A stretch of 26,262 nt of DNA from Thermoanaerobaculia bacterium (GCA_033762835.1 JANRLG010000123.1:1-26262), one strand, 5' to 3'. Positions 16,917-20,565 are shown, numbered from the stretch's first letter. The notes: generated by a model from the letters alone, not told the origin. A program made the numbers and translations.

Positions 16917-17990
16917 TCAGGTGCGGAAAAGCGACACCGGGCTAATGACGGTTTCGTCATTGCGCCCTGGAAGTGGGGGCGTAGGCTGCTGCTCCCGCAG
17001 AACGCGGATGTCTCCGGCCACGCGGATGACCAGGGAGAGTCCCTCGATCAACAGGCCGATGGCCCAGGCGAAGAGGTAAAAGCCACCGAGCGTCCCCGCG
17101 AACCTGTTGACCGCAGTCCGGCGCTGGCCACGAATAGCAGACTGTATCTCTGAGATTTCCTGCTCGGTGTGTTGGACGTTGTTGGGTACCTGGGCCAACT
17201 TGTTGCGCACTTCGCCCCATGCGGGCTGGCTTCTGTGGCGCCTGTTGTCCACTTCTTGGAGTTGGCCGGCGAGCCATTTTTCTTCATTAAGCGATGAAAA
17301 ATAAGAATTTGCGACGACGTTCCCTTGGACCTCTTGGTTTGTTTGGAAGAACTCGTGGGCGTTGTTCTCACGGCTGCCGTAGTCCGAATAGGGCATGGGT
17401 GACGTCTGTGGACCGAGCTGAACTCGGAGGCTCTCCGGGAGTGACAGCTCAAGGGTCAATCGAGCCAAGCGGAGCGCCAGTAGTTGCTGCTCGGTTTGAA
17501 GTTGCCATCTGGTGAGCGCCTTGGTCTTGAGTTGAGACCATTCATCGTCAAACTGGGCGAGTTCGGCTCTGAAGTGTTCCGGCTGCCTTCCCAGCACTAC
17601 GAGGTATTCCTTCTTCTCCCGCAAAATCCGGAAATCTACTCGGGAGGGTAGGCTGGCCCAAGCTCCAGCGAGGCCCATGGCAAGGAGCAGGATAGCTCCG
17701 ACGACCAAGCTGGCCTTGAGGCTGGCCAGATACCGGCGAATCAGGAATTGGTCGCTGCGGACACTCTCGTATTCTTCCCGCCGTTCGGTGTCTGCGACCT
17801 CGGCCAGGGTCTTACGAAGGAAGCTGAGGGGGCTGACGAAGACCAGGACGAAGAGTCGTCCCAGCCCCGCGGCCAGAGCCGGAATGTCGCTTCTCCTCAC
17901 GAAGGCTCCCAAAGCCAAGAGGAATAGCAGGAAGAGGACCGTGGCGGGGATGAGATTGGTGGCGATGCTGTTGAACAAGTCTTTGAACAT
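16917..17990 (-). CDS. integral membrane coiled-coil protein of unknown function (last gene of CHAT operon; compositionally atypical)
   Basis: ATG 17990 preceded by GGAGGAA on the minus strand (ORF-track 18005 is TTG). 357 aa with N-terminal TM helices, a further TM near aa 95-115 and a C-terminal TM (LGGFYLFAWAIGLLIEGLSLVI). The central region is Gln/Glu/Asn/Lys-rich and probably coiled coil. Local GC is ~40-57% across 17160-17640 with AAT/GAA/AAA/CAA codons, versus ~70% background. Confidence 0.6.
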   Translation of the reverse strand: MFKDLFNSIATNLIPATVLFLLFLLALGAFVRRSDIPALAAGLGRLFVLVFVSPLSFLRKTLAEVADTERREEYESVRSDQFLIRRYLASLKASLVVGAILLLAMGLAGAWASLPSRVDFRILREKKEYLVVLGRQPEHFRAELAQFDDEWSQLKTKALTRWQLQTEQQLLALRLARLTLELSLPESLRVQLGPQTSPMPYSDYGSRENNAHEFFQTNQEVQGNVVANSYFSSLNEEKWLAGQLQEVDNRRHRSQPAWGEVRNKLAQVPNNVQHTEQEISEIQSAIRGQRRTAVNRFAGTLGGFYLFAWAIGLLIEGLSLVIRVAGDIRVLREQQPTPPLPGRNDETVISPVSLFRT

Positions 17991-18014
17991 GGTTCCTCCG
18001 GACAACAGGTAGGG

Positions 18015-18812
18015 TTAGGTTCCTTGGAGCGCGGAACGCAGCATCGTCAGCACCGCGCTTTCGGATACGGCTCTTGGCGCCAGGGCTTCGCTCCGCACCT
18101 GGATACGCTCGCGGTCGCCGTTCTTGAAGCGCACTTCGAGGGCAATGCGGTCGGACAGGCCGCTGGCCGATCGGCTTCGGTCGATCCCAACCGCCGCGAT
18201 GTCGGCCGGGGAATACTCGTGAGCCCGTTCTTGGCGGAACTCGCGGTGGACGAGGTCCACTACACAGTGGAACGACGCGATCCGCCGGCTCGTGATCCAA
18301 AACACCCGCAGGCCGAGCTCCGGGTGGCGCTCGATACCGTCGCGTCCCTTTCGGGGCGCCAGACGCGTCCACGAGAAACCTTGCTCGCCGATGGCTACGG
18401 CCTCGGTGCTGGTCACCGGGTAGGCCAGCACCTCCTCGTCTGGGATCGTCAGGTACTGGCGCGAGTAGTCGACCGCGGACCGCAGGCTCTCTTCGATCCA
18501 GGCGTCGACCTGGGTGTCGTCGGGAAGAGCCTTCCGGCTGGCGACAAGAGCCCGGGTGAGTCGTTCGGCAAGCTGGGGCTCGAGAATGCTCAACGTGGCG
18601 AGGGCCATGACCGGCAACGCCAATAGGCCGAGCAAGGTGCCGACGATCGCTCCCAGCGCCTCCGTGAAGCCGAAGACCACGAGGATCAAAACGATCAGGA
18701 TGCCTACCCAGACCGGCGTGGGCAGTTGCGGCGGGGATGGTGGAGCCCAGAAGTAGCGCCCGAGGGCTTCGATTCTGGACTCGTCCGAGACAGGTTCGAG
18801 TTCAGTGTGCAT
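18015..18812 (-). CDS. 2-TM membrane protein with ~185-aa C-terminal soluble domain (unknown; possibly bacterial PH-like)
   Basis: ATG at 18812-18810 verified. 33-aa N-terminal tail, two adjacent TM helices (VWVGILIVLILVVFGF and LGAIVGTLLGLLALPVMALATLSIL), then a soluble domain. The start overlaps the last 11 nt of the upstream CHAT gene. Confidence 0.55.
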   Translation of the reverse strand: MHTELEPVSDESRIEALGRYFWAPPSPPQLPTPVWVGILIVLILVVFGFTEALGAIVGTLLGLLALPVMALATLSILEPQLAERLTRALVASRKALPDDTQVDAWIEESLRSAVDYSRQYLTIPDEEVLAYPVTSTEAVAIGEQGFSWTRLAPRKGRDGIERHPELGLRVFWITSRRIASFHCVVDLVHREFRQERAHEYSPADIAAVGIDRSRSASGLSDRIALEVRFKNGDRERIQVRSEALAPRAVSESAVLTMLRSALQGT

Positions 18813-20565
18813 CGGCCCCTTCCAGTCGAGTTGTTAGTTCTCTCCGGCTGAGCCGGAGGCAAGCGCTCAGGAATTCGAGATGTTCACGGCGGCTCGGAGC
18901 GGCGTCGAACTCTTCGAGCAGCGCCTCCGGCGCTGGCGGCTGGACGACCATCTTCCCGGCCCGGAAGTACTCGAGCTTAAGGGCCGCCAAGAGAAGAGCC
19001 AGTGGGGCGAACCCTGGGTCCCGGTGCCGCGCCTCGGCGAGGGCCAGTTGCAGGCTCGCCGCCTCAGTTCCGGAGAGCTCGGCCAGGGGGCGTCCGGCGA
19101 TCGTCGCCAAGGCCTCGAAGTAGGCCAGCCGGGGGATGTTGCCGAAAGCACGGCGCGCTTCGTGAAACCTTTCCGCGGCAGCCGGATAGCTGCCGCCTTG
19201 CAGCAGGTCGAGTCCCACGGCGACCTCCGGCCGGGCCGGCTCGGGAATCGAGTCCAGCAAGAGCCGGTAACGCTCGGCCAATCTCGCGCGGCTCTCCGCT
19301 TCGCGGGGAGCTTGGTCGCCGTGGTAGTGAAACACTCGCTGATCGATGGACCCCTGCAAGACCCCGATCGCGGTCTGGTTGTCGGAGAACGAGAAGCCCG
19401 TGATCATCGTCGCGGGGCCTGCCGCCGGCGGGGCCGGGGCCGGCGTCTCTGCTGTTCTCGAGGGCTCGTCCCGATCGAGTCCGTCCGGCTCCGGCTGGAG
19501 CCGCAGAATCGAGATACCGGCCGGAGTCGTTAGGATCGGCGTGCACCATTCCGAGTCGTCTGGGGCAGCCGAGTAGAGGAGACGGCGCGCCGTCTTCAGC
19601 GCGCCATCCACCGAAAGTCCCTTGCCGAGAGCAGCGAAGAACTCTGAGCTGAAACAGGTTGCGGTGTGATCTCCCACCGGGCTGCGCATGCCGATGACCC
19701 CGGGGATGCCCGCCATGGCGAGCGCGGCCGCCGTGCTGGTGTGGGCCTCCAGGTTCGGGGTCGTTCCGATGTCTGCGCTCAAACAGGCATTGAGCAGCAC
19801 CAACCAGGGGCGTTGAGACGATTTGCAGCAGTCAGCCAGTGTCGAGGCCCTCACTGGGTGGATGCTGCCGTCGCGGTTCTCGAAGCAGAGCACTCCTCCC
19901 GCTTCCGGGGAGAAGTCACCGTGCCCGCCAAAGAGATAAACCGGCGCAATGGGGCTGGCATCGAGGGCCCGGGTGAGCTCTTCCAGCGTTGGTTTCTTGG
20001 TGAAGCACAGATCGAGGATCGGCAATCGGGTGGCGAGTGCCTCGAGCCGCCGTCGCTCGCGCGCCAGATCGAGCTTCGGCAGGTGGTTGGGGGAGGCGAG
20101 AGTCACGATCAAACGCAAGCGGGAGGGCAATTCGATTCGCTCCGGGGAACGAGGCGAAACGACGCTTCGCAGGACCGACGAATGGGGGTCGAGAGCGAGG
20201 AAATCCCGAGTGTCGGGTCGATGAAGGCATTCCCAGGGCAGGCGATAGAGCCGGCGTTGGTCGGGATCACTCAGATCAAAGCGCAGCCGCAGCCGAAGGT
20301 TGCGACCCTGGGTCTTGCTGCGCTCCAGGGAGGTCAGCCAGGCTTCGCGAACGGCACCTTGAATGAGAGTCTCGAACAACAAGCTGCCGAGGCGCCGCGC
20401 GGCTTCGTGGGGGTCGTCTCGTTCTTCCTCAAGGAGTGAACGGGCCTCCTCGAGTCGCCCGAGGTCACTCGCTCCTCCAGTGTTCGGTTCGACCACCTGG
20501 GCGAACAAGTGTCCTTCGGGTCCGCGGTGACCGAAGGCCAAGACGAAGTCGTCGAGGTCTTCCAA
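18802..20565 (-). CDS. CHAT-domain (caspase-like, peptidase clan CD) protein with N- and C-terminal uncharacterised domains
   Basis: TTG start at 20565 with GAGAGGAGAG SD on the minus strand. The CHAT signature is clear: LYRLPWECL at the domain start, the catalytic His in VYLFGGHGDF, and the catalytic Cys in WLVLLNACLSADIG, then the typical AAALAMAGIPGVIGMRSPVGD...ALKTARRLL tail. About 100 aa N-terminal and ~230 aa helical C-terminal regions match no family I recognise. Confidence 0.8.
   Translation of the reverse strand: MEDLDDFVLAFGHRGPEGHLFAQVVEPNTGGASDLGRLEEARSLLEEERDDPHEAARRLGSLLFETLIQGAVREAWLTSLERSKTQGRNLRLRLRFDLSDPDQRRLYRLPWECLHRPDTRDFLALDPHSSVLRSVVSPRSPERIELPSRLRLIVTLASPNHLPKLDLARERRRLEALATRLPILDLCFTKKPTLEELTRALDASPIAPVYLFGGHGDFSPEAGGVLCFENRDGSIHPVRASTLADCCKSSQRPWLVLLNACLSADIGTTPNLEAHTSTAAALAMAGIPGVIGMRSPVGDHTATCFSSEFFAALGKGLSVDGALKTARRLLYSAAPDDSEWCTPILTTPAGISILRLQPEPDGLDRDEPSRTAETPAPAPPAAGPATMITGFSFSDNQTAIGVLQGSIDQRVFHYHGDQAPREAESRARLAERYRLLLDSIPEPARPEVAVGLDLLQGGSYPAAAERFHEARRAFGNIPRLAYFEALATIAGRPLAELSGTEAASLQLALAEARHRDPGFAPLALLLAALKLEYFRAGKMVVQPPAPEALLEEFDAAPSRREHLEFLSACLRLSRRELTTRLEGADAH

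Follow-up and report, generated by a model that had tools for sequence, protein, structure and literature searches.

A conserved triad of a CHAT protease gene and two membrane-protein genes in Thermoanaerobaculia, a possible membrane-docked protease module

We analysed a stretch of 26,262 nucleotides (nt), hereafter the window, which is a contig of a metagenome-assembled genome (MAG) of Thermoanaerobaculia (Acidobacteriota; GCA_033762835.1 JANRLG010000123.1:1-26262), with a focus on a gene triad at positions 16917-20565. According to the list of open reading frames (ORFs) and the sequence, the triad consists of three minus-strand genes, namely gene 1, which codes for a CHAT protease, followed by gene 2 and gene 3, which code for membrane proteins; at NCBI, the product of gene 3 is found in identical form as a hypothetical protein under the locus tag SF066_08535. 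The genes, with the domains and residues to which we refer below, are located as follows.

18802-20565, minus strand: gene 1, CHAT protease, 587 amino acids (aa), TTG start with GAGGAG upstream
19558-20394, minus strand: CHAT domain of gene 1, residues 58-336, extent of the Pfam match
19921-19923, minus strand: codon of the catalytic His215, motif GGHGDF, read from the sequence
19783-19785, minus strand: codon of the catalytic Cys261, motif LNAC, read from the sequence
18805-19410, minus strand: clade-specific C-terminal domain of gene 1, residues ~386-587, after a Pro/Ala-rich linker (~346-385)
18015-18812, minus strand: gene 2, membrane protein, 265 aa, ATG start
16917-17990, minus strand: gene 3, helical membrane protein, 357 aa counted from the ATG, GGAGGA upstream
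17106-17645, minus strand: central helical domain of gene 3, hypervariable, residues 116-295 (180 residues), predicted to be periplasmic

The end of the CHAT gene and the ATG of gene 2 overlap by 11 nt, a gap of 24 nt separates the gene 2 stop from the start of gene 3, and a purine-rich Shine-Dalgarno sequence precedes each of the three genes. This layout agrees with a first-pass annotation of the same DNA, which had described three packed minus-strand genes with this overlap and gap and with Shine-Dalgarno sequences of their own. Five other contigs have CHAT, gene 2 and gene 3 in the same order, at 37-98% identity, and the overlaps or gaps between the genes are at most 38 nt in L001, L003, L011/L012 and L002. 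The loci and their aa identities to the window are listed here.

L001: triad present, neighbourhood the same as in the window; S9 peptidase 94%, flotillin 98.5%, CHAT 81%, gene 2 86%, gene 3 59%
L003, a near-identical strain: triad present, neighbourhood the same as in the window; flotillin 98%, CHAT 97%, gene 2 98%, gene 3 69%
L011/L012 (assembly GCA_001458795.1): triad present, neighbourhood as in the window except for an additional hydrolase gene ahead of flotillin; identities for L011, S9 peptidase 78%, flotillin 93%, CHAT 46%, gene 2 45%, gene 3 45%
L002: triad present, flanks wholly unlike those of the window; identity of the triad genes only 37-44%
L024: C-terminal fragment of gene 2 (hhalign E = 9e-5) directly upstream of a gene 3 relative, 37% identity

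In L002, an ABC transporter lies on one side of the triad and beta-lactamase-fold and PIN genes lie on the other. Because the gene order recurs in other contigs, including the different context of L002, the triad behaves as a unit, and the membrane genes, whose linkage to CHAT the first-pass annotation had noticed at a single locus, are found next to CHAT in L001, L003, L002 and L011/L012 as well, with a gene 2 fragment in L024. One might instead suppose that three unrelated neighbours lie side by side by accident, as two of the three genes have no assigned function and the distant relatives of gene 3 are not linked to CHAT. This is very improbable and in effect already refuted, since five to six contigs share this gene order with its spacing and 11-nt overlap, even where identity is as low as 37-45% and the neighbourhood is another one, and gene 2 was not found outside the cassette.

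The triad of the window is flanked by the following features.

20658-22793: S9/DPP-IV peptidase gene, ends 92 nt upstream of CHAT
14818-16863: flotillin/SPFH gene, 681 aa, convergent with gene 3
16880-16903, minus strand: GC-rich hairpin of 10 bp in the interval on which gene 3 and flotillin converge

Both flanking genes match the ORFs and Pfam, as the first reading of the locus had it. Flotillin and the S9 peptidase were rejected as components of the system because both are absent in L002 and an extra gene parts flotillin from the triad in L011. That gene, at L011 9300-11072 (GCA_001458795.1), carries Abhydrolase_1/Abhydrolase_4 matches, and a second, large TPR_12-CHAT protein (>1115 aa) is encoded at L011 14499-17080, 5.4 kb downstream. 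The hairpin that had been proposed to end the operon is indeed a stable fold (-27.6 kcal/mol, z = -6.25; 0 of 200 shuffled sequences were equally good); it has no T-run, and a terminator scan gave no call there. It is likely to be the transcript end, perhaps a bidirectional one.

Judged by its sequence, gene 1 is a CHAT caspase-fold cysteine protease that retains the His-Cys dyad. The Pfam family CHAT (PF12770) matches residues 58-336 with 78.9 bits against a cut-off of 24 (6e-22), spanning profile positions 2-272 of 289, and an alignment showed that His215 and Cys261 are unchanged in all five cassette copies, so that the intact dyad reported in the first-pass annotation is also a conserved one. 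The N-terminal extension of ~100 aa that had been claimed has to be shortened to ~57 aa, since the Pfam match starts at residue 58. CHAT identity ranges from 43 to 97% across L001, L002, L003 and L011, and the Cys motif PWLVxLNAC (PWLVVLNAC) is common to the cassette CHAT and to distant actinobacterial CHAT proteins. Hydropathy analysis revealed no hydrophobic or transmembrane (TM) segment and no signal peptide, and because a hydrophobic segment is lacking, the protein is predicted to be cytoplasmic. The C-terminal domain has many unchanged columns among four cassette copies; past residue ~360, no match was found in Pfam, PDB or plasmids, and the only hint of the helical nature proposed earlier for this domain was a non-significant TPR match among the PDB sequence profiles (E = 0.1). 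We propose that it may serve for docking or sensing. A recognisable sensor domain was not found in gene 1 with Pfam, PADLOC, NCBIfam or PDB profiles, and neither was a STAND or Avs architecture. A scan of genome contigs with the CHAT alignment returned distant actinobacterial CHATs only, none of them close to a gene 2 or gene 3, and plasmids held only generic CHAT cores at 25-30% identity.

The hydropathy profile of gene 2 bears out its earlier description as a 2-TM protein, with a TM hairpin at residues ~34-78 (nt 18579-18713) after a short N-terminus. Because this hairpin has a short turn (TEALG) and its second helix is followed by positive charges, both ends of the protein are predicted to be cytoplasmic; a match of the hairpin to MotA (E = 0.03, PDB profiles) was taken as compositional. 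In a structure model, which was built from a shallow alignment of four sequences and is of low confidence (predicted local distance difference test, pLDDT, 62), residues ~99-263 form a helix, a seven-strand beta domain and a C-terminal helix. The Foldseek list for this model consists mostly of PH folds, including two bacterial PH (bPH) structures (PDB 3b77, 3dcx), and no sequence match to the Pfam bPH families was obtained. The cytoplasmic domain, as modelled, is probably PH-like, and the likeness to bPH membrane proteins in this low-confidence model extends to the two N-terminal TM helices, the beta-sandwich and the C-terminal helix. We take this architecture to resemble that of YdbS/YdbT-type bPH proteins. 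A low-confidence loop at residues 137-152 lies directly before the stretch R154-x-G-R-D-G-x-x-R-x-P, which is unchanged in four copies, with one R-to-K replacement in L011. We also observed that positions 18301-18400 of the window (gene 2 residues ~138-170) have 84% nt identity to L003 within surroundings of otherwise 99%, and that this patch overlaps the low-confidence loop of the model just before RxGRDGxxRxP. Word-index searches of ~15 billion proteins, which could miss distant relatives and had either the lone sequence or a profile as query, returned cassette copies as the only relatives of gene 2.

The hydropathy profile of gene 3 shows four hydrophobic segments, at residues ~13-31, 37-57, 93-113 and 297-322. 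Because the second of these is only marginally hydrophobic across the family, we count three or four TM helices, so that of its earlier description as a 4-TM protein the hydrophobic membrane protein stands and the fourth helix is left as optional. The conserved membrane core comprises residues 1-115 and 296-335; within the last TM helix, W309 and G312 are invariant and E316 is nearly invariant, and a RVAGD(I/V)RxxR tail follows. An AlphaFold2 model of gene 3 is all helical (pLDDT 70, shallow alignment of four sequences), with values mostly of 80-90 in the central domain that dip to ~65-77 near residues 190-220. A family-wide count of Lys and Arg residues assigns the loop 58-92 and the C-terminal tail to the cytoplasm and the central domain to the outside, which is why we predict the latter to be periplasmic. 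An acidic stretch at ~67-78 is flexible, with a low-confidence break of the model at 72-78, and the pattern D-x-E-(R/G)-x-E-E near these residues is kept in all six of the six CHAT-linked copies.

In a search of 1.84 billion representatives that used no word index, a gene 3 profile made from four copies gave 124 matches, 84 of them below 1e-10, nearly all of which are 345-390 aa long and align end to end. The family thus obtained, ~124 clusters at 50% identity, has hydrophobic segments at ~10-35, (37-57), 80-115 and 300-340 and shares the motifs SPxx(Y/F)LRK, SDQ(Y/F)LLxK, W151, R251..QP and WxxGLxxE...AGDVRxIR. Its named members come from Acidobacteriota, Thermoanaerobaculia, Bacteroidota, Ignavibacteria and Zixibacteria, all of them annotated as hypothetical, and no family in Pfam, NCBIfam, PADLOC or PDB matched. 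As far as these sequence searches reach, the gene 3 family is undescribed, gene 3 itself has the length, segments and motifs by which we define it, and the triad is built from one new small family (gene 2) and one new large family (gene 3).

Relatives of gene 3 that stand alone have among their neighbours a deoxyhypusine-synthase-like gene, purF/nuo and alaS. The deoxyhypusine-synthase-like gene lies directly upstream of such relatives in three acidobacterial contigs (L015 6896-7873, L018 6576-7688, L017 164-466), and another stand-alone locus is situated between purF and nuo genes. In L021 and L022, the gene 3 relative is followed by a homologous protein of ~430 aa (L021 9103-10392, L022 1192-2484; 34-36% identity), which has no Pfam family and combines a signal peptide with a long coiled coil; the pair of L022 adjoins an integrase/AlpA island. 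A cluster with a bpMoxR-type AAA ATPase and TIR_2 was seen at L015 12271-17146 (minus strand), 3 kb from the stand-alone gene 3 relative of this Thermoanaerobaculia MAG. We presume that this cluster resembles the MoxR-vWA ternary conflict systems.

The cassette diverges much faster than its flanks, as the aa identities of L011 and L001 show, and this suggests, at the level of sequence comparison, the pattern expected of a conflict system. Between the window and L003, the synonymous divergence (dS) is 1.9 for gene 3 versus 0.07 for CHAT, 0.12 for gene 2 and 0.21 for flotillin, and the alignment contains one block that covers nearly all of gene 3.

~16900-17900: divergent block, nt identity to L003 of 54-78% inside and mostly 91-100% outside; outside, the bins that deviate are two at the block edges (88-92%) and one within gene 2 (84%)

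Because the jump at silent sites is sharp-edged, we regard gene 3 as the product of replacement by an old divergent allele and not of simple fast drift. Between cassette copies, the central domain of gene 3 has identities of 61%, 37% and 22-32%, and the membrane part has identities of 83-87% and ~60%. Overall, the ratio of nonsynonymous to synonymous divergence (dN/dS) of gene 3 is 0.11-0.32, indicating purifying selection. A diversity-generating retroelement as the origin of this variability was rejected, given the absence of a template-like repeat, the ~1-kb size of the block and the saturation of synonymous sites. Positions 17001-18000, which coincide with gene 3, have the lowest GC content of the window (0.583 vs 0.64-0.72 elsewhere).

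Sequence comparison indicates that the triad matches none of the described systems that we considered, which were gasdermin, EACC1, Pepco, Craspase, SAVED-CHAT, HetF and DdvA. The first-pass annotation had been unable to assign the triad, and we likewise obtained no system match with PADLOC, Pfam or PHROGs. For gene 2 and gene 3, Pfam, NCBIfam, PADLOC and PHROGs gave chance-level matches only (coiled-coil-type families, LmuB, JetC, ZorA), and the PDB sequence profiles gave only coiled-coil or TM noise. Gene 1 is not the housekeeping protein HetF, a possibility that had been raised for it, as it reaches 63.8 bits against an equivalog cut-off of 1200 (NCBIfam NF045509); both have a CHAT domain, but only the CHAT core aligns, and architecture and neighbours differ. 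A type III-E Craspase has an N-terminal TPR array fused to CHAT and Cas7-11, Csx30 and Csx31 as neighbours, whereas the triad is without these: no TPR precedes the CHAT domain of gene 1, and Pfam detected no cas family in the long ORFs of the window, three short ORFs being left without a Pfam family. A PADLOC match of gene 1 to SAVED-CHAT (E = 1.6e-8) covers only residues 177-361 and profile positions 119-283 of 498, and because it is confined to, or ends just past, the Pfam CHAT region, gene 1 appears to have no SAVED sensor. In DdvA, a single chain carries a zinc anti-sigma domain in the cytoplasm, joined through a TM helix to TPR-CHAT in the periplasm, and acts with a cognate ECF sigma factor (PMC11506125). 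The likeness lies in a CHAT protease that is functionally tied to the membrane; we rejected gene 1 as DdvA-like because it is a separate cytoplasmic CHAT without a TM segment and the window has no sigma factor gene.

Closer in organisation are the gasdermins, which in bacteria are activated by CHAT or caspase-like proteases (10.1101/2021.06.07.447441), and the protease-associated effectors EACC1 and Pepco (PMC12642450), with which the triad shares a caspase-fold protease in a tight operon with non-enzymatic, membrane-acting partners and a fast evolution. Their partners are, however, soluble autoinhibited precursors, whereas those of the triad are integral membrane proteins with 2 and 3-4 TM helices; moreover, no model similarity was found in the triad, gene 1 is without STAND or Avs, and the wider gene 3 family is free of proteases. 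The two membrane partners had already been described as unlike gasdermins, which agrees with the absence of a gasdermin match in Pfam and PADLOC, with the TM helices predicted in both and with the modelled folds, PH-like for gene 2 and all helical for gene 3. A 2025 survey lists MBL, alpha/beta-hydrolase, Pepco, EACC1, PCaspase, gasdermin, CATASP, MPE, CalpT and Csx30 as protease-associated effectors (PMC12642450), and gene 2 and gene 3 belong to none of these families. The small effectors EACC1, Pepco and CATASP (~100-130 aa) were rejected as candidates for gene 2 and gene 3, which have 265 and 357 aa and no Pfam or PADLOC match. In Zorya, the ZorAB membrane complex senses at the envelope and activates cytoplasmic effectors (PMC11946911); the triad resembles it in having inner-membrane proteins with long helical extensions coupled to a cytoplasmic output and differs in lacking MotA/ExbB or MotB homology, with only chance-level ZorA/MotA matches.

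We tentatively propose, with a probability of about 0.35, that the triad is a membrane-docked CHAT module in which gene 3 provides the input, gene 2 the adaptor and CHAT the output, and which probably acts in conflict. Gene 3 would sit in the membrane with its hypervariable helical domain facing the periplasm, and gene 2 would be anchored by its 2-TM hairpin and present the PH-like domain to the cytoplasm, where CHAT could dock on gene 2 and gene 3 via its clade-specific C-terminal domain. An envelope perturbation sensed by the variable domain of gene 3 would be relayed across the membrane and would switch on the protease, which might then cleave its partners within cytoplasmic segments, other proteins of the cell, or both; in the partners, speculative cleavage regions are the flexible acidic loop at ~67-78 in gene 3 and the disordered one at 137-152 in gene 2. 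Zorya (PMC11946911) and DdvA (PMC11506125) are precedents for envelope sensing by membrane complexes that activate effectors in the cytoplasm, and there is also precedent for a caspase-like protease as a terminal effector (10.1101/2024.10.24.620036). We favour the direction from sensor to protease because gene 3 relatives stand alone and CHAT has no recognisable sensor domain, and an arrangement in which the membrane proteins sense and the protease is the output fits the variable, predicted periplasmic domain at least as well as the reverse. The data themselves show the gene anatomy, the intact dyad, a linkage conserved within one clade, a fast and mosaic evolution and the lack of a match to a described system; complex formation, topology, signalling direction, substrates and the role in defence are what we infer. 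The cassette is most likely self-contained and lineage-restricted, with a role in conflict (phage defence or strain discrimination) rather than in housekeeping.

A number of observations weigh against a membrane-docked conflict module. With Pfam and PADLOC, no defence genes were found among the window genes around the triad, so that the window is no defence island, and PADLOC gave no match for the triad beyond the bare CHAT domain; mobile-element genes were not found around the triad in the window either. The linkage to CHAT is confined to one narrow clade, and the cassettes of the window, L001, L003 and L011 share one site between S9 peptidase and flotillin, which looks like vertical inheritance rather than mobility. 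Relatives of gene 2 or gene 3 were not found on plasmids, in phage records or in viral contigs, and a metagenome scan with a four-sequence subset of gene 3 returned four loci. All 12 of the 12 distant gene 3 loci (~20-29% identity; 8 after merging syntenic or duplicate contigs) are without CHAT or gene 2, as judged from up to 8 kb on each side of six long loci and from five contigs of <5 kb, and the settings of the longer ones are mostly housekeeping-like. The allele replacement is deduced from few metagenomic contigs, and the topology of gene 3 from charge counts only. Finally, in the stand-alone relatives of gene 3, the central domain has an identity of 31-52% (the whole proteins 41-53%), whereas the adjacent deoxyhypusine-synthase-like gene has 80-88%. 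Because stand-alone relatives vary too, the variability of gene 3 belongs to the family as a whole rather than to the CHAT clade in particular, and it could in part reflect weak constraint on a helical spacer.

Many of these observations are also those on which an explanation by housekeeping or regulatory proteolysis can draw, according to which CHAT matures or turns over gene 3, or signals envelope stress, with gene 2 as an adaptor, and the fast evolution comes from weak constraint on a helical spacer plus ordinary recombination. Such a role would account for the retention of the S9-flotillin site across considerable divergence, for surroundings free of mobile-element and defence genes, for a widespread gene 3 family that stands alone beside a deoxyhypusine-synthase-like gene, purF/nuo and alaS and varies in its central domain there as well, and for a dN/dS of 0.11-0.32; HetF, by its NCBIfam name, is a CHAT protein of cyanobacterial cell division. 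We nevertheless consider this explanation possible and on the whole unlikely. Gene 2 and the linked CHAT occur in a handful of contigs among ~15 billion proteins, where wider retention would be expected; all three genes, and not the spacer alone, have ~45% identity versus 78-93% for the flanks; the ten-fold synonymous jump with sharp edges points to an old allele replacement and not to relaxed constraint; and the triad is kept as a unit in the different context of L002.

The first-pass annotation had favoured a protease-gated membrane effector, with the protease processing one or both membrane proteins to damage the membrane. Spelled out, a signal would activate CHAT, perhaps through its C-terminal domain, and CHAT would cleave gene 2 and/or gene 3 and thereby convert a latent membrane protein into a depolarising leak or pore, with cell death or arrest as the outcome (abortive infection). 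Its premises of a packed triad and an intact dyad hold, and to these may be added the fast evolution of the cassette, the precedent of gasdermin (10.1101/2021.06.07.447441) and of EACC1 and Pepco (PMC12642450) as protease-activated membrane killers, the tightness and conservation of the triad, a polar face of W309/G312/E316 on the last TM helix of gene 3 as in a channel-lining helix or an oligomer interface, and flexible, conserved, predicted cytoplasmic segments within reach of the protease. The narrow clade, the protease-free relatives of gene 3 and the lack of a defence island speak against it. Gene 3 is already an integral membrane protein and not a soluble autoinhibited precursor; 0 of 12 distant gene 3 loci have a protease partner, the longer ones being mostly housekeeping-like; the stretch of gene 3 that varies most is predicted to lie in the periplasm, beyond a cytoplasmic protease; and no sensor was found in the triad. 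Because its relatives stand alone in stable chromosomal contexts, gene 3 is unlikely to be a toxin in itself, which argues against a latent killer in need of protease control. Gating of a membrane effector by CHAT is therefore a reading that we hold to be possible and on the whole unlikely. A bolder form of the membrane-docked module, namely that the gene 3 family is a new class of envelope receptors that recognise invaders or non-kin through the hypervariable periplasmic helical domain, that it is wired in this clade via a membrane-anchored PH-like adaptor to a cytoplasmic caspase-like protease, and that strains exchange long-lived receptor alleles, strikes us as doubtful at present.

The remaining genes of the window code for an MMPL transporter, an M14 carboxypeptidase, two kinase-TPR proteins, a dehydrogenase, a methyltransferase-like protein and an RHS protein. 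The kinase-TPR genes (6998-9712 and 9726-12401, plus strand) are paralogues that lie side by side; each joins a Ser/Thr protein kinase to long TPR_12/TPR_10 arrays. The gene at 23173-26187 (minus strand) codes for a 1004-aa RHS-repeat protein (Pfam RHS_repeat, 2e-15) with a C-terminal region without family, and a polymorphic toxin is conceivable here.

Caspase-fold proteases are increasingly recognised as central switches in bacterial immunity, and all of their partners characterised so far are, to our knowledge, soluble precursors or factors linked to CRISPR or CBASS. If a CHAT protease has two integral membrane proteins as its permanent partners, caspase-fold immunity would gain a branch that is coupled to the membrane. 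The cassette is rare, having been found in five to six contigs; it would give a first functional handle on the unannotated gene 3 family of Acidobacteriota and the FCB group. If the allele turnover of gene 3 is confirmed, the triad would illustrate in compact form how old allele classes can be kept and exchanged at a bacterial locus, and if the receptor reading is true, it would represent a bacterial pathway from a surface receptor to a caspase.

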